From UHGV virus genome UHGV-0190047: a DNA stretch of 8,162 bases; one strand, 5' to 3'. Every line of letters begins with the position of its first letter. Within the stretch, counting starts at the first letter, position 1. The stretch comes from a virus. Made by a program: the position numbers and the translations under genes. The notes below the pieces were generated by a model. It saw nothing but the letters and a program-made list of their open reading frames with translations. It ran no database searches and was not told the origin of the DNA. This document shows, one piece after another, positions 1-8,162 of the stretch.

Positions 1-45
1 ATATATTTAGGCGACTTTTATAAATTGATAAGGAGGTGTTTGTTT

Positions 46-330
46 ATGTTGAAGATTAAGAATGCGGTTAAGAAGTATCGTTCCATCCCTGTCGCCACTG
101 GTGTTGCGTCTGTTGCTATGGCTTTCCCGGCTTTTGCTGAGGGCGGTACTCCGGCCACGGGCCTTGACAGTCTGTTAGCCACGTTTTCTGTGGTTACGGC
201 CTGGCTTTGGAAGGAGTGTGGGCTTCTGCTCACCTGGATTTTAAGCCAGCCTATCCTTTTGGCCGCCATGTGTCTGTTCTTCGCTGGCGCCGTGGTTGCG
301 TTCTTCATGCGCATTTACCATCAGGTATGA
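46..330 (+). CDS. Inovirus major coat protein (g8p)-like precursor: signal peptide plus hydrophobic mature peptide
   Basis: SD AAGGAGG at 30-36 sits 9 nt upstream of ATG 46. The track ORF starting at 25 is probably 7 codons too long. Predicted signal peptide MLKIKNAVKKYRSIPVATGVASVAMAFPAFA, then mature EGGTPATGLDSLLATF. This junction closely parallels M13 g8p (...PMLSFA-AEGDDPAKAAFDSLQASAT), sharing the AEG / P-A / DSL-A pattern. Two hydrophobic helices follow. The C-terminus is not strongly basic, which is atypical for a coat protein. Confidence 0.55.
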   Translation: MLKIKNAVKKYRSIPVATGVASVAMAFPAFAEGGTPATGLDSLLATFSVVTAWLWKECGLLLTWILSQPILLAAMCLFFAGAVVAFFMRIYHQV

Positions 331-334
331 TTCA

Positions 335-356
335 GAAGGGGACCCCGGTCCCCTTC
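335..356 (+). terminator. perfect GC-rich palindrome (GAAGGGGACC CC GGTCCCCTTC) directly after the coat-like gene
   Basis: 10-nt arms, seen directly. No U-tract follows, so it may act as an attenuator or RNA-stability hairpin rather than a full terminator. Its position is analogous to the strong terminator after gVIII in Ff phages. Confidence 0.35.
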
Positions 357-374
357 CCCCATTGAGGTGATTTT

Positions 375-536
375 ATGATTGATTTATTCAACCTTTTTAT
401 AGATGTGATTCTGTTCCCCATGTCCCCGGATGCCTTTACCCTTGATACGAATATTATGTGGCAGTTCATGCTTTTAATCCTTCTTCCGGTGGGTCTTATC
501 CGCATTGTGAAACAGCTTGTTAAGGGGGTGTTTTAA
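375..536 (+). CDS. small (53 aa) single-pass membrane protein; candidate minor virion or assembly protein
   Basis: Not in the ORF track because it is under 60 aa. ATG at 375 with GAGGTG 6 nt upstream. Hydrophobic core WQFMLLILLPVGLIRIV. Its TAA stop (534-536) overlaps the ATG (536-538) of the downstream Zot-like gene by one nucleotide, suggesting translational coupling. Confidence 0.45.
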   Translation: MIDLFNLFIDVILFPMSPDAFTLDTNIMWQFMLLILLPVGLIRIVKQLVKGVF

Positions 537-1336
537 TGTATGCGTTTTCTGTTCTACTCTTTGGCTTTGGTATGTTTTGGATTGTCTTTTTTGCTTATCA
601 TTTCTTTAAGTATCGCAATCCATATAAGCTCTTTATGGTCTTTGGCAAGAAAGGTAGTGGCAAGACTACGCTCATGTGTAAGATGGCACTTAAATACCGT
701 AAGAAGGGGTGGCACGTCTATAGCAACGTGCATATACCTGGAACTTATCACTTCGATACCGTTGATATTGGTGTTGCCCATTTTCCTGAAAATTCTATCC
801 TGCTTATAGATGAGGTTGGAATGGTTTGGGATAACCGTGATTTTAAGAATTTTAAGACACATACACGTGATTATTTTAAGCTTCAGCGTCATTACCGTAA
901 CATTGTGTATTTGTTTTCCCAGTCGTTTGACGTGGATAAAAAAATCAGGGACTTGACAGACCGGATGTATTTGACTAAAAATTTCTTCAACTGTTTTTCC
1001 CTTGCCCGCAGTATTGATAAAAGGATTACCATTGTACATGCAAATGAAGGCCAGGGTGTTTCCACTTTGGCGGATGATATGGATTTTACTCCCCTTTGGC
1101 TTTTCTGGTGCGGTGCTGTTAAGGTTACATATATTCCTAAGTATGTTAAGTACTTTAATTCTTATGATGTTCCCGCACTGGTTCCTGCTAATTATGATTA
1201 CACCCCCATTCCCTCTGTTCCATCTTTCAGGGAACGTTTTGTTTCCTTCCTCCAGGCGGCTGGCCCGCGCTTGCACCGCAGCGCGGGTGCCGTCAGGAGG
1301 AAGCTTCCCCGGCTCACGATTCGTCGTAAGAAATAA
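536..1336 (+). CDS. Zot / inovirus pI family P-loop NTPase (phage assembly ATPase)
   Basis: Walker A GKKGSGKT (aa 37-44), a SNVH segment, and Walker B ILLIDEVGMVWDNR. This matches the Zot architecture seen in CTXphi Zot (GAPGSYKT ... ITNVRG ... FLFIDECGRIW). A hydrophobic segment FTPLWLFWCGAV after the ATPase domain matches the Zot/pI membrane anchor. GGGGGTG lies 6 nt upstream and the start is coupled to the preceding ORF. An alternative internal start at 635 would remove the N-terminal hydrophobic 33 aa. Confidence 0.8.
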   Translation: MYAFSVLLFGFGMFWIVFFAYHFFKYRNPYKLFMVFGKKGSGKTTLMCKMALKYRKKGWHVYSNVHIPGTYHFDTVDIGVAHFPENSILLIDEVGMVWDNRDFKNFKTHTRDYFKLQRHYRNIVYLFSQSFDVDKKIRDLTDRMYLTKNFFNCFSLARSIDKRITIVHANEGQGVSTLADDMDFTPLWLFWCGAVKVTYIPKYVKYFNSYDVPALVPANYDYTPIPSVPSFRERFVSFLQAAGPRLHRSAGAVRRKLPRLTIRRKK

Positions 1337-1340
1337 TGAT

Positions 1341-1373
1341 GACTTCGGACCCCCGTCTAATTAGGTCCGAAGT
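1341..1373 (+). terminator. 11-bp stem hairpin (GACTTCGGACC ... GGTCCGAAGTC) after the Zot-like gene
   Basis: Perfect inverted repeat with an 11-nt loop, 5 nt after the TAA stop. The downstream sequence is moderately T-rich (TTCTTTCACTTTGTTTCATTC) but there is no immediate U-run. Confidence 0.4.
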
Positions 1374-1430
1374 CCTGAAAAATTCTTTCACTTTGTTTCA
1401 TTCTTAACAATCTTTTTGGAGGTCTTGCTC

Positions 1431-2351
1431 ATGCTTTACTACTTCAACCCACTCCTTGAGGATGGTATTTTTTACTCCTGTGATTCCCTTCGTTACTCGT
1501 TTGAATTCCCGGATATAGATACAGTGGAATCCTTTCTTACTCTCCTCTCCCATCTGCCCGGCTCCACGTCCTATACATCTTATAAAGATTTTGACTATCG
1601 GTATTTATATGTGTTTGGAATGAAGGGAATGTCATTCAGTATTGGCTGTTGCATGAATGGTGTAAAGAAAGAAACTGTCTTACAGGGTTTCCTGGATTTC
1701 AACCCTAATAAGTTACTTGGAGAGGTTGCTTATGGTGATGGCTTTCTTCGTACCATAGTATCTCCCTTTACCCAGGAGGAAACCTCCTTCTGTGATTTAC
1801 GGGACCAGATAGGCGACATTCTGAGGGATGTATTAGACCAGCTTTTTGTAAGTGTGGAATCTATAAGAATCAAAAGATGGGATTTAGCAGTTGATGTGCC
1901 GTATGGTCGTGATTGTGTACAGTTGATTAAGGATAACCGGAAATACAGCCAGTTTTACAAATCGTCTCAGGATTTCACTGAGTACTTAGGTTCCATGTCC
2001 AGTCCAGGCCGTGTCAAAATTTACAATAAGCAGTTGGAGGCGGAACTTGATTATCCCCTTACTCGGATTGAGGTCACGTTGGATAGTCTGGATTATATAG
2101 ATTGCTGCCGATGCTGGCCCAATGTCTATACTCGTAAAGTGATTGACTTAGCGGAGACAAAGGTCATTGTGCAGTTGCTTGCAGAACAACCTGTTGACAA
2201 AATGGACTATTATCTCCGCCAGATGTCGGCCCCTACGAAACGTAGATACAAGGCCCTGCTTCTGGAACGTCCCTTTGAGGTTGCAGGTCCTGTTTTTAAC
2301 AAGTTGCGGAATCAGTTATTGAGATATCAGGAGGGAAATTTTTATGAGTAA
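1431..2351 (+). CDS. Rep_trans-family rolling-circle replication initiator (gII/RstA analogue)
   Basis: The motif TEYLGSMSSPGRVKIYNKQLEAE......TRIEVTL fits the Rep_trans signature (T.Y.GSR.S...RIYdK..E ... R.E..L) found in pT181 RepC/RepD and CTXphi RstA. WDLAVDV resembles the upstream conserved R.D.A.D block. GGAGGT at 1418-1423 sits 7 nt before ATG 1431. The track's TTG start at 1416 is less likely. Confidence 0.7.
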   Translation: MLYYFNPLLEDGIFYSCDSLRYSFEFPDIDTVESFLTLLSHLPGSTSYTSYKDFDYRYLYVFGMKGMSFSIGCCMNGVKKETVLQGFLDFNPNKLLGEVAYGDGFLRTIVSPFTQEETSFCDLRDQIGDILRDVLDQLFVSVESIRIKRWDLAVDVPYGRDCVQLIKDNRKYSQFYKSSQDFTEYLGSMSSPGRVKIYNKQLEAELDYPLTRIEVTLDSLDYIDCCRCWPNVYTRKVIDLAETKVIVQLLAEQPVDKMDYYLRQMSAPTKRRYKALLLERPFEVAGPVFNKLRNQLLRYQEGNFYE

Positions 2352-2523
2352 ACCAGTTGGAAAAATCAAGGTCAATGTATATCTTACAAAGATACAATAC
2401 AATCAGCTCTGCCGTTATATGGAATTTTGTGAATGCTATTCCACCCCGGCTGAAATGGCAACAAGACTTGTCCAGGTTGGTCTGGCCGAAGCAATCAAAC
2501 GTGGGGCAATTAAAGAGGATTAA
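2344..2523 (+). CDS. small (59 aa) ribbon-helix-helix-like DNA-binding protein
   Basis: Not in the track (59 aa). ATG 2344 overlaps the Rep stop (ATGAGTAA). Strong SD AGGAGGG at 2329-2335 with 8 nt spacing. N-terminus KIKVNVYLTKIQYNQL has an RHH-type beta-strand (V.VYL) followed by two predicted helices. The RHH loop lacks the usual Gly, so the fold call is tentative. Confidence 0.45.
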   Translation: MSKPVGKIKVNVYLTKIQYNQLCRYMEFCECYSTPAEMATRLVQVGLAEAIKRGAIKED

Positions 2524-2527
2524 AAGT

Positions 2528-2617
2528 ATGATATTAAATCTCAAAGTTTTTCTTGTTTTGTTTTTTATTATGATTATACTTCTTATCTATTTTTACTGGC
2601 CACGTGATTATCCGTAA
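2528..2617 (+). CDS. 29-aa hydrophobic peptide (possible small membrane or virion protein)
   Basis: ATG 2528 with GAGGA 7 nt upstream. Sequence MILNLKVFLVLFFIMIILLIYFYWPRDYP. It is the C-terminal part of track ORF 2357..2617, whose N-terminal part overlaps the better-supported 2344 gene in another frame. The size class resembles inovirus g7p/g9p. Its TAA stop lies inside the left inverted repeat of 63-bp element A. Confidence 0.3.
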   Translation: MILNLKVFLVLFFIMIILLIYFYWPRDYP

Positions 2618-2676
2618 CACATAGTCGCGCCGGCTCCGGCCTGGCCAGGAATCACCTGCAGGTGAAAATGTGTTAC
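2614..2676. repeat. 63-bp element A: GTAACACAT ... ATGTGTTAC terminal IRs enclosing three palindromes
   Basis: 9-bp terminal inverted repeats. Internal GCCGG-CT-CCGGC (2629-2640), CCTGGCCAGG (2640-2649) and CACCTGCAGGTG (2653-2664). Lies between the stop of the 2528..2617 gene and the start of 2692. Confidence 0.7.
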
Positions 2677-2691
2677 AGAATGGGGGTAAAT

Positions 2692-3024
2692 ATGAAAGAC
2701 ACAAAGAATAATATCCGTTCCTTCCGCTACTCTGACCGGGTAGCTCAGATATTGGAATCCATGGAAGGCGACAGCTTAAACGCAAAGTTTGAGAATCTGG
2801 TACTCTTCTGTCATGATCGTCTCCCGGAAGTCCAGAAAAAGTATGATATGTATAAGTCCATGGCTGATAGGCAATGGAATGAATTTATGGAATTGTCGGA
2901 TTTGCGGGATGGCATTAAGCGTGATTTAAGGAATGTAGAAAACAAGCTTTGCTCTTTGGATGAGTTGTTGGAATTTACGGAAAGTCGTTGCAAGGCTGTC
3001 ATGGAACATAAAGAGGAATTGTAA
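2692..3024 (+). CDS. RHH-like N-terminal domain plus C-terminal coiled coil; putative transcriptional regulator
   Basis: ATG 2692 preceded by GGGGGT. The track's GTG start at 2662 lies inside repeat element A. IRSFRYS (beta) - DRVAQILESME (helix) - GDS - LNAKFENLVLF (helix) matches the RHH fold pattern, including the G-x-S loop. The C-terminal 60 aa are charged and helical. The gene is bracketed exactly by 63-bp elements A and B, and its TAA stop lies in B's left inverted repeat. Confidence 0.5.
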   Translation: MKDTKNNIRSFRYSDRVAQILESMEGDSLNAKFENLVLFCHDRLPEVQKKYDMYKSMADRQWNEFMELSDLRDGIKRDLRNVENKLCSLDELLEFTESRCKAVMEHKEEL

Positions 3025-3083
3025 CACATGATTGTCCAGGCTCCAGCTGTGATGAGGAACTACCTGGAGGAAATTTGTGTTAC
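3021..3083. repeat. 63-bp element B (GTAACACA ... TGTGTTAC)
   Basis: Same length and termini as A. Shares GGCTCC at positions 19-24 and an ACCTGGAGG internal inverted repeat. Begins at the TAA stop of the 2692..3024 gene. Confidence 0.7.
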
Positions 3084-3095
3084 ATAGATAAAGAT

Positions 3096-3125
3096 ATCCC
3101 CGGCATAGCGCCGGGGATTTTATTG
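3096..3125. terminator. bidirectional rho-independent terminator between convergent genes
   Basis: Stem ATCCCCGGC / GCCGGGGAT (9 bp, 5-nt loop) followed by TTTTATTG on the + strand and TCTTTATCTA on the - strand. Located between the 2692..3024 (+) and 3126..3359 (-) genes. Confidence 0.6.
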
Positions 3126-3359
3126 TTAGAGTGCTTTTGGCAATATGCCTTTTGCTTCCAGGACTTCCACTATTGTTTCGATATCTTGTCTAGTTTCCCG
3201 GAATCCTTTTCTCATTTCGTATTCTAAATTTGTGATACGATTATCTAGGTTGCTTATGCGGTTGTCCATATTACTGAGACGATTGTCCAGGTTCGTAAGT
3301 TTTAAATTAATCGGTTCCAGCATTTGTCTCATTGCTTCTAAAATCTCTGTGTCTGTCAT
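3126..3359 (-). CDS. coiled-coil protein with tandem 7-aa repeats (LTNLDNR/LSNMDNR/ISNLDNR/ITNLEYE)
   Basis: Strong SD AAGGAGGA 8 nt upstream of the ATG on the - strand (revcomp of 3360-3375). Heptad repeats are encoded by three imperfect 21-bp DNA repeats at about 3222-3300. Convergent with the 2692..3024 gene across a bidirectional terminator. Function unknown. Confidence 0.6.
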   Translation of the reverse strand: MTDTEILEAMRQMLEPINLKLTNLDNRLSNMDNRISNLDNRITNLEYEMRKGFRETRQDIETIVEVLEAKGILPKAL

Positions 3360-3435
3360 TTTACTGTCCTCCTTGATATTCTTCTTACATCATATCATTA
3401 AAATTCGTTCTCGTCCATCCTGGTGCGTTGTAGAC

Positions 3436-3684
3436 CTATTTCATGCTGATATCTCCATGTATGGTCCCGGCTACTATGCCTTTGTTGGTTTTCACTTGGA
3501 TTCCTGGTGTGCCATTCATGTCTTTTTCTATTAATGCTATCATGTAGGCTGCAAAGGATTTATAGCCACTTTGTTTCCAATGGTTTTCTATGATTTCTTT
3601 TTGACCTTTTGCTACTCTGAACCTTAATTCTTCATATTTTTCTTTGTTATATTCGTTGTTGTATTTTACTTTATCATATGCCAT
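3436..3684 (-). CDS. ribbon-helix-helix family DNA-binding protein; candidate phage repressor
   Basis: LRFRVAKGQKEIIENHWKQSGYKSFAAYMIALIEKDM matches the beta-alpha-(G.S)-alpha RHH pattern typical of CopG/Arc/MobC-like proteins. Start MAYDK at 3684 has AAAGGAAA 10 nt upstream. The longer track ORF (to 3840) reads through the operator repeats and is probably not coding. It sits upstream of, and is likely co-transcribed with, the coiled-coil gene. Confidence 0.65.
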   Translation of the reverse strand: MAYDKVKYNNEYNKEKYEELRFRVAKGQKEIIENHWKQSGYKSFAAYMIALIEKDMNGTPGIQVKTNKGIVAGTIHGDISMK

Positions 3685-3707
3685 TTTGATTAGTTTCCTT
3701 TCGCTAG

Positions 3708-3785
3708 ACATGTGCGCATGTGAAAAATAACTAATAACATGTGCGCATGTTTGTATGTTTTGTATATGTACACATGCGCACATGT
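3708..3785. promoter_or_regulatory. operator array: three copies of ACATGTGCGCATGT (two direct, one inverted) in the divergent control region
   Basis: Copies at 3708-3721, 3738-3751 and, inverted as ACATGCGCACATGT, 3772-3785. Centre-to-centre spacing is 30 and 34 bp, roughly three helical turns. Immediately upstream of the - strand RHH gene, overlapping the + strand promoter region. Confidence 0.5.
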
Positions 3786-3786
3786 T

Positions 3787-3795
3787 TGATATAAT
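3787..3795 (+). promoter_or_regulatory. extended -10 promoter element TGATATAAT for the rightward operon
   Basis: TGnTATAAT match abutting operator copy 3. A roughly 100-nt leader follows before the SD at 3889. Confidence 0.35.
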
Positions 3796-3826
3796 ATTAG
3801 TGTAAGGATAAGTCATGATTAAGCGC

Positions 3827-3883
3827 TTAGTTAGTATCATTTTAACACAAATTTAGTTAGTCTACAAGGATGATTTAGTTAGT
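3827..3883 (+). repeat. three direct copies of TTAGTTAGT in the 5' leader of the 3904 operon (a fourth copy at 4554-4562 upstream of the g5p-like gene)
   Basis: Exact 9-mers at 3827-3835, 3853-3861, 3875-3883 and 4554-4562. The last copy in each location lies 6-12 nt 5' of the SD. Confidence 0.5.
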
Positions 3884-3903
3884 TGGTTAAGGAGGGTTTT
3901 GTT

Positions 3904-4107
3904 ATGACAGTTGAACAGATTTTAGCATTGCCGATTATTAAAGATGATACACATATTTTTATTCGTACCGAAGCGTTTGAGCTTCGCGCTTGCTTAACCC
4001 GTTTACATCCACAAATATTGCGTTGGTATCCTTATGATGTAATGGCATTTTCCTGGGATGATGATAACCAGGTTTATATTACCATATATTCGGGGGTGCA
4101 ACTATGA
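3904..4107 (+). CDS. hypothetical 67-aa protein, first gene of rightward operon
   Basis: SD AAGGAGGG at 3889-3896, 7 nt before ATG 3904. The track start at 3883 is probably too long. No recognisable motif. Confidence 0.55.
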   Translation: MTVEQILALPIIKDDTHIFIRTEAFELRACLTRLHPQILRWYPYDVMAFSWDDDNQVYITIYSGVQL

Positions 4108-4343
4108 TGGATAAAAAGCGTATCCGTGAAACACTTAATGATGCTGTAGAACGGTATCTTCTTGGTGATGTTGATGGTGATTTCCGTTTTAACTATATTT
4201 GGCTTACTGCCCAACTGAGTTTTGCATGTACCATTGATGCAATTACTTTTGAAGAGCGTGATACTTTGCGCAGGGTTGTCACTCACGCTTATAAAACTAA
4301 CAGGAGGGGTCCAGAATGCGTAGACTTTCCAAGGCTCTCTTAG
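4104..4343 (+). CDS. hypothetical 79-aa protein
   Basis: ATGA start/stop overlap with the previous gene. GGGGGTG 5 nt upstream. No recognisable motif. Confidence 0.55.
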   Translation: MMDKKRIRETLNDAVERYLLGDVDGDFRFNYIWLTAQLSFACTIDAITFEERDTLRRVVTHAYKTNRRGPECVDFPRLS

Positions 4344-4495
4344 AGCAGGAACAAAATGAAACCAGCGTGGCAATCTGTCGTGCCATGGCTATGCATGACC
4401 AGTGCAGGGTGGATGTATTACAGTATCATTTTTCCCGCCTGGAGCTTATCTTGGCCTATATCAATGAAAAGGCCGATGATATTCCGTCAATTTAG
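4316..4495 (+). CDS. hypothetical 59-aa protein
   Basis: Not in the track. ATG 4316 with strong SD AGGAGGGG at 4302-4309. Overlaps the 3' end of the 4104..4343 gene by 28 nt in another frame. Stop TAG at 4493-4495. Confidence 0.4.
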   Translation: MRRLSKALLEQEQNETSVAICRAMAMHDQCRVDVLQYHFSRLELILAYINEKADDIPSI

Positions 4496-4582
4496 TGTGT
4501 TTCTCTAGGGTATCCCCTGCGGCTCTGCCCTGGGTTGCAATATAACAATCAAATTAGTTAGTTAAGAAAGAGAGGATTTATT

Positions 4583-4843
4583 ATGGTATATCAGATTTTA
4601 GGAATTGAGAGATTTGAAGGCATTTCAAAGAAAACAGGAAAACCCTATGATTTCACCCGCTTTTATGCGGTTCCTTCCCGGCACTCTGATAAAGTTCGCG
4701 GCATCCGTGTTGAAAATGTAGATATCTGGAATGGTGAATATGCCCCGGATATTTCCGGTATTCATCCAGATGATTTTGTGGATATTTCCTATGGCCGTGG
4801 CGGTTTTGTCGAAGAATGCCGGGTAGTGGACTCTCCGAAGTAG
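4583..4843 (+). CDS. g5p-like ssDNA-binding protein (inovirus gene V analogue)
   Basis: 86 aa, against 87 aa for M13 g5p. KKTGKPYDFTRFYAV parallels M13 g5p SRQGKPYSLNEQLCYV. The C-terminal DISYGRGGFVEECRVV loosely parallels SFKVGQFGSLMIDRLRLV. SD AGAGGA 6 nt upstream. Followed by a structured GC-rich intergenic region. Confidence 0.55.
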   Translation: MVYQILGIERFEGISKKTGKPYDFTRFYAVPSRHSDKVRGIRVENVDIWNGEYAPDISGIHPDDFVDISYGRGGFVEECRVVDSPK

Positions 4844-4854
4844 TGGATGCACAA

Positions 4855-4890
4855 ACTCCCGGCCCCCGGTATTACCTAGGGGCCGGGAGT
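4855..4890. promoter_or_regulatory. 12-bp GC-rich stem hairpin (ACTCCCGGCCCC / GGGGCCGGGAGT) downstream of the g5p-like gene
   Basis: Perfect stem with a 12-nt loop. The local GC content is much higher than the surrounding sequence. A second weaker hairpin (CTGCTCC / GGAGCAG) lies at 4919-4969. Confidence 0.4.
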
Positions 4891-4983
4891 ACTCCTTTAC
4901 CTTGACTGCAAGAAGCGCCTGCTCCCTAACGGTCGCGAACCATCATGCCTGGATGAGCCTGCGGAGCAGCGAACATAAGAAAT

Positions 4984-5046
4984 GTAACACCTAGAGGTTG
5001 CAGCTCCGTCCGGGCCAGGGATTTACTGAAGCTAAAAATGTGTTAC
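4984..5046. repeat. 63-bp element C (GTAACACC ... ATGTGTTAC)
   Basis: Same length and termini. Shares GCTCC and GCCAGG blocks and the A-run before the right inverted repeat. Lies 23 bp upstream of the 5070 gene. A lone TGTAACA half-site occurs at 5277-5283 at the 3' end of that gene. Confidence 0.7.
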
Positions 5047-5069
5047 AAACTTTAAAGGTTGGTGACAAG

Positions 5070-5288
5070 ATGCATATAGAACTTACAGAACGAGAATTGC
5101 GGTATCTTAACCGGGTGGTAAATGTCCGCTTGGATGAATTGCTTGAGCGTTGTGCCCGGATTCGCCGGATTCGCTCTCTTGAGGATATTGACACCAGTGA
5201 GCGTTTTAGTCTGGCTGAGTCTGAAATCAAGGTTATGAAAGAGGTCCATGATAAAATCGCGGATGCCCTGTCCGATTGTAACATATAA
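5070..5288 (+). CDS. small (72 aa) helical protein, possibly RHH-like regulator
   Basis: ATG 5070 preceded by AAAGGTTGGTGA. The track start at 4998 lies inside 63-bp element C. The N-terminus MHIELTERELRYLNRVVN has the alternating-hydrophobic strand then helix pattern of RHH proteins but lacks the Gly loop, so the assignment is weak. The C-terminal codons overlap a TGTAACA half-site. Confidence 0.4.
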   Translation: MHIELTERELRYLNRVVNVRLDELLERCARIRRIRSLEDIDTSERFSLAESEIKVMKEVHDKIADALSDCNI

Positions 5289-5293
5289 CAAGC

Positions 5294-5386
5294 TGTATCC
5301 TTATATACTTAATAAAATAAAGCAACTATTCCTGATAAGTCTAGTTTAACGAATAGTTAAGGCTGATTTAAGTATATAAGGATACA
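5294..5386. promoter_or_regulatory. 93-nt nested stem-loop: 19-bp outer stem plus 8-bp inner stem; candidate ssDNA origin, packaging signal or promoter
   Basis: Outer arms TGTATCCTTATATACTTAA (5294-5312) and TTAAGTATATAAGGATACA (5368-5386) are perfectly complementary. Inner arms AACTATTC (5324-5331) and GAATAGTT (5351-5358) are perfect. The right arm contains a TATATAAG -10-like sequence 37 nt upstream of the pIII-like gene. Confidence 0.5.
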
Positions 5387-5422
5387 TCTTTTAACACTTT
5401 TGTTAGGGGGTGTATTTTTTTT

Positions 5423-6619
5423 ATGGTTAAGAAGTTTTTAAGTGCCCTGTTGGCGCTTTTTATCCTTTCGTTATTTCCCCTGACTGTTTTGGCCGGGGAC
5501 CTTCCTACATCTACCAATACGATTAACTGGTCAACGGTTGAAGTTTTTGCTTATGGTTCTGGAACCTATAAGAAATCCCTTGGTAAGGTTCAGGAGGCTG
5601 GCGGGCAAGGTGCTTTTGGTAAGGAATTTACTCCTTCTGACGGTATGGGCATTCAAGGTTTTGTTTTGGTTCTTCCCCGCTCCTCTTTTCCGACAACTGG
5701 CAAGTGGAAGGCTCAGGTTTCCATCCAGACAAGTAGCACTTCATTATTACTTGATAGGATGTATGCCCGTGGCCGTGTTAAAAGACCTAACGCTTCGGAT
5801 TTATCCGGCCAGCTTCCGAAGATTGCTTCGGATACCATCCCCCCTGACTTCTATACGGTTACATATAACGTGAATAGCCAGTCCCTCACCTCGGTTGAGT
5901 TCTTTTTCCCTTATGCGTTTCCTCTTTATGGTACGCAGAAACTTAATTTTTCCTCGGTCATTTCCTTCCGGGATTATGAATCCGGTAACATTAACAATCC
6001 GGTTGCCCCTCTTCCGGATGCATCGGAACAAAATCAGGCAATTGCCAATTCGGTCCAGGATACGGCTAACAATACGGCGGCTTTGGTGCAGAAACAGGAT
6101 ACCATCATTGACCAGATTGTGGATACCACTCAGACTATCAGTAACCAGCTCCATTCCTTTTGGGACCAACTGGCGGGTGAGTTCACGAACATGTATAACA
6201 AAATGAATCAACATCATTCTGAGGATTTGGCCGCAAACCGGCGCAATACAGAGGATATCATTGATTCCCAGGAATCCAATACCACGAATATCATTAACAA
6301 TAATAATGCAAATACGGATAAACTTGCAAATGGTTATGATAAATCCCGTCTGGATAACAGCAATGCTCAGTTGAATGATTCGATTCACAATATGCAGGAA
6401 AATGAAAAACAGTTAATGGAGGATGTAAGCAATAACATTAATTCGTTCCGTTATGATGATTATTTTACCCGTATTAGGGGGCCTTTATCGGATATATCCT
6501 ATTTCCTGAATCATATTTACAATAACATGAAGGGCTTGAATATCCCTATTGGCTTTTCCCTTACTCTCACGATTGCCATGCTCTGCATTGGCTATTATCG
6601 GTTCAAAGGGGGGACATAA
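5423..6619 (+). CDS. pIII-like minor coat / adsorption protein candidate
   Basis: 398 aa. N-terminal signal peptide MVKKFLSALLALFILSLFPLTVLA with G-D cleavage context. Central N/Q/T-rich low-complexity, coiled-coil-like region. C-terminal membrane anchor IPIGFSLTLTIAMLCIGYY plus RFKGG. This signal peptide / variable N-domain / C-terminal anchor architecture is that of inovirus g3p. GGGGGTG upstream. Confidence 0.5.
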   Translation: MVKKFLSALLALFILSLFPLTVLAGDLPTSTNTINWSTVEVFAYGSGTYKKSLGKVQEAGGQGAFGKEFTPSDGMGIQGFVLVLPRSSFPTTGKWKAQVSIQTSSTSLLLDRMYARGRVKRPNASDLSGQLPKIASDTIPPDFYTVTYNVNSQSLTSVEFFFPYAFPLYGTQKLNFSSVISFRDYESGNINNPVAPLPDASEQNQAIANSVQDTANNTAALVQKQDTIIDQIVDTTQTISNQLHSFWDQLAGEFTNMYNKMNQHHSEDLAANRRNTEDIIDSQESNTTNIINNNNANTDKLANGYDKSRLDNSNAQLNDSIHNMQENEKQLMEDVSNNINSFRYDDYFTRIRGPLSDISYFLNHIYNNMKGLNIPIGFSLTLTIAMLCIGYYRFKGGT

Positions 6620-6838
6620 ATGTTTCAATTTTTTGATGCGGTTGCCGGGTTTGTTGAAACTGTGGTTGGCTTCATTGTCAACATGATTGCAACGCTTATC
6701 CTTGTGATTGTTAACATTGTCCGTTCCGTTGGCTGGCTGGTGATGTGCCTTTCCTATCTCCCGCCCTGGATGGTTGGTTTTGTGGTCGTCCCTATCAGCC
6801 TTGCGGTTGTGTTCCAGATTCTTAATAAGGGGTCGTGA
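6620..6838 (+). CDS. pVI-like small integral membrane protein (two predicted TM helices)
   Basis: TAAATG junction with the upstream gene. GGGGGG SD. 72 aa, almost entirely hydrophobic. Its position immediately after the pIII-like gene mirrors the gIII-gVI order of Ff phages. Confidence 0.5.
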   Translation: MFQFFDAVAGFVETVVGFIVNMIATLILVIVNIVRSVGWLVMCLSYLPPWMVGFVVVPISLAVVFQILNKGS

Positions 6839-7071
6839 TGATTATGATGCGTGATTTAATTGATTTTTGTATCTTTATTGTTTCAAAGATTGCTGTCCTT
6901 TTGTTTGGCAGTGATTTGGGAGGATATTCATATGGTGATTTTTTGGTTGCTGTCCTTGTTGTTTCTGTGTTTGTTACTACGCTTGTCATTTCCTTCCGTG
7001 GTGCGGGAGGTAGTCCATCTTCCGTGGTTCGTCCGCCCAGGGCATCTAAACGTAGTGGTGGCTCTAAGTAG
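6838..7071 (+). CDS. second coat-like protein: hydrophobic leader, amphipathic segment, hydrophobic core, basic C-terminal tail
   Basis: ATG 6838 overlaps the TGA of the previous gene (TGATG). AAGGGG upstream. The C-terminus RPPRASKRSGGSK is basic, as in the DNA-contacting tails of inovirus major coat proteins. It is preceded by the hydrophobic core LVAVLVVSVFVTTLVISF and a YSYGDF amphipathic N-segment. Confidence 0.45.
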   Translation: MIMMRDLIDFCIFIVSKIAVLLFGSDLGGYSYGDFLVAVLVVSVFVTTLVISFRGAGGSPSSVVRPPRASKRSGGSK

Positions 7072-7906
7072 TTTTTTCCTGCTCTCCTGCCCTCTCCTGG
7101 CCTATGCAGATACAGCTACACCTTCCAATGCGTCCAGGGTGGATGCAGATACGGATTGGGATATGGATATGGATGATATATGGGTTGCTTCTCCTTCGGA
7201 TGCAGCCTACACGGATGTGGATTTATTGATTGATGATAGAACCTTGATGGATATTGATGATTTTGAGGATTTAAAACGTGATGATTTACTCCGATACATT
7301 TTATGCGAACTTATTACCATTCGTGATTCTTTTGGCGGTCCCGGTCTTGCTTCCTCCTCGGATGCTGCGCTTTCTTCCCTGGAGGATGCGCAGGATGTTT
7401 CTGACCTGGAGGAAGGCCCTACAGATATTATTCCTATGGACGCCCCTGTCCGTTCGGCGCGTTCGGTTTCTGCTTCTGACGATTATGTTAATGTACTTCG
7501 TTATGATGTTTCTATCTCGGGCCAGGAATATACCCTTCTCTTTCCTCCTGAGTATGCGGATTCCCTTTATGTAGACAGTCAGGGCCGTCTGTTCAATGTT
7601 TCGGCTAATACCATTCAAGGCCGTCTGGTGGATGGGAATTTTAATCCGTATGCGCGGACAGGTAAGCTTGTGTATCTTACTCCCTGCCTTGGCAATAACT
7701 TTTACACTATCAGCGAGTATGGCTCCCCCAATTATGTCAGGGAGTATTATTGGAGTTCCGGTAGTTTGCGCTATCGTGATACATACGTTAATATTCAGGT
7801 GAATCAATATCATCATATATTCAAGGTTTCTGACACGCTTACATATATCGTTGTCGTTCTGATGGGAGGTTGTTTGATATGTTTATGGAGAAAATCCTCG
7901 CGTTGA
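7001..7906 (+). CDS. secreted, highly acidic protein with C-terminal membrane anchor (second pIII-like or receptor-binding candidate)
   Basis: Long ORF in the +1 frame relative to 6838..7071. The start is uncertain. GTG 7001 would give a signal peptide MREVVHLPWFVRPGHLNVVVALSSFFLLSCPLLAYA-DTATP. GTG 7055/7058 and ATG 7163 are alternatives. None has a good SD. The mature N-terminus is D-rich (DADTDWDMDMDDIW, DVDLLIDD, DIDDFEDLKRDD). C-terminal TM TLTYIVVVLMGGCLICLW plus RKSSR. Confidence 0.45.
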   Translation: MREVVHLPWFVRPGHLNVVVALSSFFLLSCPLLAYADTATPSNASRVDADTDWDMDMDDIWVASPSDAAYTDVDLLIDDRTLMDIDDFEDLKRDDLLRYILCELITIRDSFGGPGLASSSDAALSSLEDAQDVSDLEEGPTDIIPMDAPVRSARSVSASDDYVNVLRYDVSISGQEYTLLFPPEYADSLYVDSQGRLFNVSANTIQGRLVDGNFNPYARTGKLVYLTPCLGNNFYTISEYGSPNYVREYYWSSGSLRYRDTYVNIQVNQYHHIFKVSDTLTYIVVVLMGGCLICLWRKSSR

Positions 7907-8022
7907 TGGGGGATGTCCCTGTCCAGTTCTATCCGGTTTGTTATGCCTTTGGCTTCATTGCTTTTTTATGGATTGTGGATAAGTTCTTCCATATCTTTGT
8001 GTCGCTGATAGATAGGCGGTGA
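7879..8022 (+). CDS. small (47 aa) single-pass membrane protein
   Basis: Not in the track. GGGAGG at 7864-7869, 9 nt before ATG 7879. Overlaps the end of the previous gene by 28 nt. Hydrophobic core YAFGFIAFLWIV. Confidence 0.35.
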   Translation: MFMEKILALMGDVPVQFYPVCYAFGFIAFLWIVDKFFHIFVSLIDRR

Positions 8023-8026
8023 TTAT

Positions 8027-8162
8027 ATGAACCTTGGTATTGTTATGAAGGTTGTTGAATGGATGTTTCATGAGTTATCACTTCTGTTTGATATCCTTTG
8101 GAGGCATTCCTACTGGGTGGGGATGTTTGTGATTGGTCTGCCCCTTCTTAAGAAGGTTGTAG
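8027..8162 (+). CDS. partial (5' end only) hydrophobic protein, continues beyond the window
   Basis: ATG 8027, 45 codons with no stop before the window end. Hydrophobic (WVGMFVIGLPLL). Weak SD. Confidence 0.3.
   Translation, partial: MNLGIVMKVVEWMFHELSLLFDILWRHSYWVGMFVIGLPLLKKVV

Follow-up and report, generated by a model that had tools for sequence, protein, structure and literature searches.

A conserved stem around the probable attachment site of an integrase-less inovirus of Lachnospiraceae

Introduction

The virus genome UHGV-0190047, an 8,162-nt stretch of DNA referred to below as the window, carries a 93-nt nested hairpin at positions 5294–5386, between a gene encoding a 72-amino-acid (aa) protein and a pIII-like gene. 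Judged by its gene content, the window is a small inovirus-type genome, and the locus raises the question of what so long and perfect an inverted repeat does in such a phage. A first-pass annotation, made from the letters of the sequence, had proposed a packaging signal or minus-strand origin of single-stranded DNA (ssDNA), possibly doubling as a promoter or terminator. Comparison with host genomes and integrated relatives gives the region another main identity. The hairpin is very likely the phage attachment site (attP) of a filamentous phage of Enterocloster and other Lachnospiraceae that lacks an integrase and exploits the Xer recombination of its host. Phages of this habit have been described chiefly in Gram-negative pathogens, in which they mobilise toxin genes.

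A near-copy of a host chromosomal site inside the hairpin

The outer arms, TGTATCCTTATATACTTAA (5294–5312) and TTAAGTATATAAGGATACA (5368–5386), form a perfect 19-bp inverted repeat. Within it, the shorter arms AACTATTC (5324–5331) and GAATAGTT (5351–5358) enclose a 19-nt loop, so that the coordinates, the stems of 19 and 8 bp and the loop length of the first-pass annotation are all confirmed. Perfection is limited to the stems, with an internal loop of 11 nt on the left and 9 nt on the right between the outer and the inner one. A repeat finder extends the outer repeat to 23 nt at 96% complementarity (5290–5312/5368–5390), in which AAG at 5290–5292 pairs with CTT at 5388–5390.

The interior of this structure, positions 5324–5358, is a near-copy of the 34-bp host sequence AACTATTCGCGAAA-GTCTAG-TTTAACGAATAGTT. 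It consists of a phage-type left half-site, AACTATTCCTGATAA (5324–5338), the central or crossover region GTCTAG (5339–5344), and a right half-site (5345–5358) that is the same as in the host. The centre and the right half are thus identical to the host site, and the left half differs from it by a 1-nt insertion and two substitutions. By this comparison the “inner stem” is a pair of recombinase half-sites. The earlier interpretation is partly supported: the outer stem is conserved, whereas the inner stem and loop are a copy of a host site resembling dif, the chromosome dimer-resolution site, and are split on integration.

Integrated relatives show how the split occurs. In L005, a 17-kb contig of an isolate genome retrieved by BLAST against IMG/VR, window positions 5323–8162 and 1–5359 lie collinear, and the segment 5323–5359 is present at both ends. 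Complete prophages with both boundaries were found in L094, L110, L111, L118–L121 and L124, and L086 provides an unoccupied host site with left and right flanks as in L005. We compared the left and right prophage junctions (attL and attR) and the empty host site (attB) across L005, L086, L094, L121, L110 and L118. The left junction runs from the flank through AACTATTCGCGAAAGTCTAGTTTAACGAATA(A/G)TT and the right arm to the pIII gene, and the right junction from the 72-aa gene through the left arm and AACTATTCGCGATAAGTCTAGTTTAACGAATAGTT to the flank. The right outer arm accordingly marks the left end of the prophage, where it adjoins attL on the inner side and precedes the pIII-like gene, and the left outer arm marks its right end, just inside attR (L005, L094, L121, L110, L118, and L124). 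Several prophage-derived contigs begin or stop within the hairpin, and each of them has one arm copy only.

The two junctions are not equivalent. attL has the host-type left half, while attR keeps the phage-type left half (L005, L094, L121, L007, and L118), so the canonical host site is restored at attL and the phage-type site with its 1-nt insertion stays at attR. Phage-specific differences in L005 bound the crossover to AA-GTCTAG-TTTAACGAAT, and this would shrink to about AA-GTCTAG-T if phage B of the same contig shares the exchange point. The crossover interval is thus ~9–18 bp around GTCTAG. No tyrosine recombinase, serine recombinase or transposase domain was detected among the 19 open reading frames (ORFs) of the window with Pfam and PHROGs. 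Since prophages occupy the host site, the crossover falls at GTCTAG and no integrase is recognisable, we regard the element as the attP of a Xer-exploiting inovirus. Integration would proceed by the host XerS-like enzyme (described below) acting on the double-stranded DNA (dsDNA) replicative form, in the manner of VGJphi, and the altered left half-site would bias against re-excision.

An earlier study reports inoviruses that E. bolteae, E. clostridioformis, E. citroniae, E. aldenensis and Hungatella hathewayi secrete both in vitro and in mice (PMC10061712). That study describes the prophages as “flanked with direct repeats”, which the duplicated attachment site explains; Xer, dif and the hairpin are unmentioned in it, and the inovirus survey PMC6813254 makes no mention of dif. 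The quantitative PCR primers for its “circularization region” correspond to the 3′-end of the 72-aa gene and to the reverse complement of window positions 5388–5412 (PMC10061712). They flank the hairpin, and the amplicon is therefore the hairpin itself. The host-junction primers of the same study correspond to the right-hand flanks found in L005 and in L094/L121.

The host site and its XerS-like recombinase

Each of 64 species-representative genomes holds exactly one copy of an invariant 19-mer from the core of the host site. Almost all of these genomes belong to the Lachnospiraceae, including Lacrimispora, Hungatella, Enterocloster, Acetatifactor, Agathobacter and Roseburia. Conservation is limited to 34 bp, with the consensus AACTATTCGC[G/A]AAAGTCTAGTTTAACGAATAGTT (L018–L081), and the flanks are unrelated. 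As compared across the 64 genomes, the site is made up of 14-bp imperfect inverted half-sites around the 6-bp GTCTAG (14+6+14), a sequence layout that is that of a tyrosine-recombinase target.

A gene for a ~351-aa tyrosine recombinase is located near the site, within the stretch fetched, in 48 of the 64 loci (median distance 764 bp), and is transcribed away from the site wherever it is present; the larger distances go with inserted elements. Its best NCBIfam match is XerS (NF003462), with 216 and 192 bits, and the XerC, XerA and XerD models match it too, below their cut-offs. We use the name “XerS-like” rather than XerS, because the score is under the NCBIfam cut-off of 267 bits. This single recombinase is the likely enzyme of phage integration.

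On the Lacrimispora sinapis chromosome the site stands at 50.1% of the length, and on a 6.37-Mb Enterocloster aldenensis contig at 49.8%. In 30 of 35 loci, GC skew drops at the site, the mean going from +0.076 on one side to −0.035 on the other. Taken together, these sequence features make it probable that the 34-bp site is the dif-like site of many Lachnospiraceae, a large part of the family; no earlier description of it was found in the literature searched. Several points weigh against this assignment and against a Xer role in integration. The recombinase falls short of the XerS cut-off (216 vs. 267 bits). In two other large host records, whose origins are unplaced, the site is at 10.9% and 24.2% of the record, and in some loci the local skew switch is weak or missing. 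Catalysis by the host enzyme is, moreover, something we infer from the site and the gene.

Two known systems resemble this arrangement from different sides. Elements of the VGJphi type in Vibrio cholerae, a class of integrative mobile elements exploiting Xer (IMEX), are likewise filamentous phages without an integrase that insert a single dif-like attP, presumably as dsDNA, into the host dif, restore a functional dif at one junction and can pile up there (PMC4246890). The present phage differs from VGJphi in its Gram-positive Lachnospiraceae host, in a 34-bp (14+6+14) site served by a single XerS-like gene instead of a 28-bp XerC/XerD dif, in an attP set apart from the host sequence by one inserted nucleotide in a half-site rather than by a non-homologous centre, and in the conserved 19-bp stem enclosing that attP. 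On the host side, the XerS/difSL system of streptococci and lactococci comprises a 31-bp site beside a gene for a 356-aa recombinase (PMC1914069; PMC2965235). It shares with the Lachnospiraceae locus a single tyrosine recombinase gene of ~350 aa beside its own imperfect palindrome, present once per chromosome (PMC1914069; PMC2965235). The two differ in that the host enzyme here is below the XerS equivalog cut-off and the site is 34 rather than 31 bp long. Xer-exploiting phages of difSL are not described in either paper (PMC1914069; PMC2965235).

A second, partial and inverted right half-site (CCAACTAxTTCGTTAAACTAG) was observed ~60 nt to the right of the host site in L038, L043, L044, L047 and L055, which include some Acetatifactor genomes and others. 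It is perhaps the remnant of a past element or a small insert.

Conservation of the outer stem

The outer arms are unrelated in sequence to the half-sites, and in prophages they stand at opposite ends as terminal inverted repeats. The stem can therefore form only once these ends meet, either by circularisation of the genome or at a tandem junction. The 19-bp outer repeat is the longest perfect inverted repeat of the window (loops of ≤100 nt), and in 40 dinucleotide shuffles of the window the longest such repeat measured 8–12 bp, which bears out the earlier remark that arms of this kind are rare by chance. As ssDNA, the hairpin region folds with −20.3 kcal/mol on the plus strand (z −6.1) and −22.3 kcal/mol on the minus strand (z −7.1), and as RNA with −38 kcal/mol (z −4.85). 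No shuffle folded as well in either form. Four other 110-nt windows equal or beat it as ssDNA (1211–1320, 4831–4940, 3681–3790, and 3021–3130). A scan of the hairpin against Rfam returned sub-threshold, miRNA-like noise and no family.

From left to right, the flanks of the attachment site are built as follows. The left outer arm occupies 5290–5312 on the plus strand and is perfect over 5294–5312. It is followed by an unpaired left spacer, TAAAATAAAGC (5313–5323), which measures 11 nt here and 11–13 nt in relatives. Beyond the attachment site lies the unpaired right spacer, AAGGCTGAT (5359–5367), 9 nt in length in the seven aligned A-type lineages and variable in sequence, and then the right outer arm at 5368–5390 (plus strand), perfect over 5368–5386. 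The block TCTTTTAAC (5387–5395, plus strand), directly 3′ of the stem, is invariant or nearly so among right-arm variants; L110 and L079 have TTCTTTAAC. Each outer arm has conserved ends and an internal GTAT-N6-ATAC dyad. This dyad was considered as a recurrent operator and rejected, being present in the two arms only.

Covariation was assessed on seven attP reconstructions. Seven of the 19 outer pairs are invariant, four change on one side (all of them still G.T), six change on both sides and two differ only through unpaired cells. In total, 93.8% of outer-helix cells are paired, compared with 27–40% in slid registers, and at most 1 in 500 shuffles reaches the observed covariation values. RNAalifold arrives at this structure as well. 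In the Clostridium porci-type phage (L110/L111) the arms read GGTGTTCGTGTATACTTAA and TTACGTATACGCGAATACA, and three pairs differ on both sides, and the arms of the L118–L120 phage, TGTACTAATCA-CTTAA and TTAAGCATTGATTAGTACA, have changed together. The eight inner pairs never vary and so carry no structural signal; their pairing is invariant because the sequence must match the host, not because of a helix. The expectation that the stem would be conserved with compensatory changes is thus borne out for the outer stem (6 of 19 pairs two-sided) and not for the inner pairs. The commonest left arm and the commonest right arm of the population are perfect complements, and the window combines both. 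On this comparative evidence, the outer arms are a conserved long-range stem, kept complementary by compensatory changes in divergent lineages.

Some observations pull in the other direction. The covariation stands on two independent divergent lineages (L110 and L118), and in the alignment one row was N-padded at a bulge and one was edited in the unpaired spacers to hold register. Near its centre, the stem of single-lineage genomes contains two to three non-Watson–Crick positions or else a bulge of 3 nt. No stem surrounds the attP of the B-type and C-type inoviruses that occupy this host site, and conservation of the outer pairing is confined to the A-type lineage.

Searches for further arm pairs added little. 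A C. porci-type arm was sought in viral contigs and none was found. The left-arm/spacer pattern retrieved 39 loci from viral contigs, 37 of them new and without a dif-like core, which added no phage contig. Short contigs with divergent homologues of the 72-aa gene (reg) yielded attR junctions only and no new arm pairs. Matches to an arm alone in L013, L016 and L017 lie in coding sequence of an unrelated phage and were discarded as chance. A sister phage without the left arm was also considered for the left flank of L095, L105, L107 and L109 and rejected: no phage genes lie beside it, the same flank occupies the host-left position in L109, and the complete prophages of those lineages have the left arm.

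Other inoviruses, arrays and mosaic genomes at the site

The attP of B-type phages has the canonical left half-site and centre and a degenerate right half-site, TAATCAGTAAGCAC (L005 1637–1670; L083 2360–2393; L109; L119). In this respect the B-type inovirus of these four records, as distinct from the window phage, resembles TLCphi, whose attP has a degenerate XerD arm. TLCphi needs an activation factor, and no XafT-like factor was identified for the B-type phage. Two phage lineages (L114–L117, downstream of reg, and L127–L129) have CAACAC in place of GTCTAG at attR. By analogy with VGJphi and CTXphi, this non-homologous centre perhaps reflects integration by single-strand exchange.

Up to three inovirus prophages are stacked at the host site. 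The arrays are head-to-head B+A (L005 1651–15582), tandem A–A (L091 and L123) or mixed (L109, L119, and L124), and the mixed ones include other Zot/Rep_trans elements. One canonical site is always kept within or beside the array; arrays form because that site is regenerated, which explains the stacking in twos or threes, sometimes head-to-head.

The window is itself a mosaic. Its Zot-to-reg block (536–5288) is nearest to L007, with 92–96% DNA identity, and its pIII-to-coat block (5423–8162 plus 1–535) is nearest to L002/L104, with 95–98%. The breakpoints fall at attP and near the start of the Zot gene, so that the two arms travel with different modules. This pattern suggests an exchange of modules via the attachment site or via tandem arrays, and integration at attP explains why mosaic genomes have a breakpoint there.

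Possible roles of the stem

We tentatively favour a role for the stem as a signal in plus-strand ssDNA, with packaging a likelier task than priming of the complementary strand. On this view the circular plus-strand ssDNA would carry the stem as a signal for morphogenesis or priming, and its splitting on integration would leave it only in correctly circularised genomes. The packaging signal of the Ff phages (M13/f1) is comparable in being an imperfect, intergenic hairpin of ~80–100 nt on the packaged strand that keeps pairing over sequence in the centre of its stem. Unlike the Ff signal, the window hairpin encloses an attachment site, is destroyed by integration, is lacking in sister lineages and is known from its sequence alone. 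Two findings tell against an ssDNA signal: the strand bias of wobble pairs (6 on the plus strand vs. 2) is not significant, and other strong hairpins of the window (4855–4890 and 1341–1374) could be the packaging signal or origin. The stemless attP of B-type and C-type phages tells against a signal that is essential throughout the family.

The pairing constraint, the mild excess of G.T on the plus strand and the existence of the stem in joined ends only fit an ssDNA signal and an RNA element alike. An RNA element is nevertheless an unlikely explanation, if a serious one. It would be a hairpin in a long plus-strand transcript, split by integration, that attenuates or terminates transcription before pIII or serves as an RNase III-type processing site. 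The genes flanking the hairpin are all on the plus strand, the region folds strongly as RNA, the one-sided changes keep G.U on the plus strand in six cells, and a conserved U-rich block, UCUUUUAAC, follows the stem. A C-type relative has, at the equivalent position between site and pIII, a local 17-bp hairpin and a T-run. The stem is, however, AU-rich with arms 55 nt apart, unlike intrinsic terminators, and the terminator scan made no call from the outer arms. The 24 nt that separate the stem from the ribosome-binding site show no evident promoter, and efficient termination would for that reason silence the structural genes. The G.T pairs, finally, fit ssDNA equally well.

The suggestion that the stem doubles as a promoter or terminator was not upheld, as the scan supports neither a promoter (no acceptable −35) nor a canonical terminator. 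An intrinsic terminator was rejected because the G+C-rich stem and short loop are missing, and only the trailing UCUUUU fits. The −10-like sequence TATATAAG to which the first-pass annotation had drawn attention lies in the variable centre of the arm, where relatives have TATACGCG, CATTGATT or GTGTAAGG. A minus-strand origin that mimics a promoter was likewise rejected, for there is no −35 partner and TATATAAG is replaced in L110, L118 and L007.

It is doubtful that the arms are accessories of recombination in dsDNA, either as symmetric protein sites or as a cruciform-prone extension of dif that hides the site or tunes Xer synapsis or directionality. Their geometry is suggestive: they flank attP at a near-fixed distance (9 nt on the right, 11–13 nt on the left) despite differing arm sequences, and their dyad axis, at ~5340, falls inside the central region 5339–5344. 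The conserved arm ends, the GTAT-N6-ATAC dyad in each arm and the small conserved gene always found beside attP would also suit protein binding. The variable arm centres, however, change compensatorily instead of staying conserved, and base pairing therefore fits better than sequence-specific recognition by a protein. The 72-aa neighbour is modelled without a DNA-binding fold, the B-type and C-type phages, which have no such arms, insert at this site too, and no known Xer-exploiting element needs flanking repeats (PMC4246890). That the stem has no function at all we consider improbable.

CTXphi offers a precedent for a filamentous phage with a dif-like target and a hairpin at attP in which the stem of a folded single strand rebuilds a duplex dif-like site and the strand itself serves as substrate for recombination (PMC4246890). 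As in the window phage, the hairpin at attP(+) of CTXphi is absent from the integrated form, where its arms are parted to opposite ends of the prophage. A mechanism of this kind is very improbable here. CTXphi builds its site by the pairing of two inverted dif-like sites, whereas the window has one complete site in the loop region, enclosed by a stem whose arms are unlike the half-sites. The half-sites pair with each other at the hairpin tip, leaving no duplex half-site/centre/half-site, and the folded strand is for this reason not a recombination substrate. Scarcely tenable, finally, is the reading of the whole nested hairpin, inner stem included, as a packaging signal or minus-strand origin with no part in integration: its size and form do recall the Ff packaging hairpin and the outer stem is conserved, but the inner stem and loop match a host chromosomal site that is duplicated at prophage ends, the comparison of attL, attR and attB contradicts this reading for the inner part, the inner pairs are invariant and without structural signal, and the −10-like element is not conserved.

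Within the literature searched, the arrangement of an attP inside a stem is new for these phages and hosts. With it, the secreted inoviruses of the gut commensals Enterocloster and Hungatella would join the Xer-exploiting class. The conserved stem is a mutable target for asking what marks filamentous-phage genomes for packaging or priming in Gram-positive hosts, and the 34-bp site could serve as a single-copy integration target for engineering gut bacteria that are hard to manipulate. With low confidence we put forward a wider proposal, in which a single dif-like attP inside a conserved hairpin would be a fourth design of Xer-exploiting attachment. Taken apart by integration and restored by excision or tandem insertion, the stem would be an essential signal, in the single strand or in a transcript, that gates the life cycle. 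Integration would also sever the long plus-strand transcription unit between regulatory and structural genes, so that geometry rather than a repressor alone would enforce lysogeny; the host site and its recombinase would constitute an undescribed dimer-resolution site and single-recombinase Xer system of Lachnospiraceae.

Genome context and other elements of the window

Domain and family scans of the window ORFs identified a Zot-type ATPase at 536–1336, and a domain scan found an RstB-like or single-stranded-DNA-binding (SSB)-like ORF at 4583–4843. The ORF at 1416–2351 has Rep_trans-like motifs, as judged from its translation and without a database match; a search against PDB sequences gave no match either. 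The window also encodes a run of small membrane proteins, and the largest ORFs without assignment are membrane proteins of structural type. A close-match search of the GenBank phage collection with the window returned nothing. Positions 8162 and 1 adjoin in relatives, and the window therefore represents either a circular molecule or precisely one repeat unit of a tandem prophage array, the data being compatible with either.

The 72-aa gene beside the left arm runs from 5070 to 5288 on the plus strand, with its start at ATG 5070 and not at TTG 4998. The TTG-extended ORF upstream overlaps a GTAACAC element. The protein is 100% identical to a hypothetical protein of Enterocloster bolteae and occurs on 600 contigs, and its gene keeps its place beside attP in A-type and B-type phages. 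The first-pass annotation had called it a small regulator; no regulatory or DNA-binding indication was found for this two-helix protein, nor a credible family in Pfam or PHROGs. Its AlphaFold2 model is a two-helix hairpin (predicted local distance difference test 87.5), for which Foldseek found no significant match in PDB, a generic helical hairpin being uninformative on function. A role in Xer recombination may be conceivable. On the other side of the hairpin, the pIII-like gene (5423–6619, plus strand) is the first of the structural block and, from its translation, has a signal peptide and a C-terminal hydrophobic segment. It has no family match in Pfam or PHROGs, and it is syntenic and 99–100% identical in Enterocloster prophages.

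Nearly all genes lie on the plus strand as one circular run, from a promoter-like site at 3767 to a terminator at 3096–3118. Integration at attP would therefore cut off the structural, assembly and rep genes from the promoter at 3767. The terminator-like hairpin at 3096–3118, ATCCCCGGC...GCCGGGGAT, is bidirectional, with T-runs on both strands, and sits between convergent gene blocks. The palindrome ACATGTGCGCATGT occurs three times at 3708–3785, between the divergent minus-strand ORF 3436–3840 and the rightward genes. Its copies overlap the best sigma-70-like promoter of the window (3767–3795), and by their placement they are probably operators of a lysogeny switch.

Two further hairpins were noted. 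At 1341–1374, an 11-bp perfect GC-rich stem, GACTTCGGACC/GGTCCGAAGTC, encloses a 12-nt loop, CCCGTCTAATTA, that holds TCTAAT. It sits in the 80-nt gap between the Zot-like and Rep_trans-like genes, just upstream of rep, and resembles a plus-strand origin of rolling-circle replication whose nick site is in the loop. The other, at 4855–4890 and immediately after the SSB-like gene, has a 12-bp GC-rich stem, CTCCCGGCCCC.../...GGGGCCGGGAG, and might instead serve as terminator, packaging signal or minus-strand origin. An intergenic element of ~64 nt is present in three copies (2614–2677, 3021–3084, and 4984–5047), each with 9-bp terminal inverted repeats, GTAACACAT...ATGTGTTAC, around a variable GC-rich interior, and a copy of it was also observed in phage B of L005.

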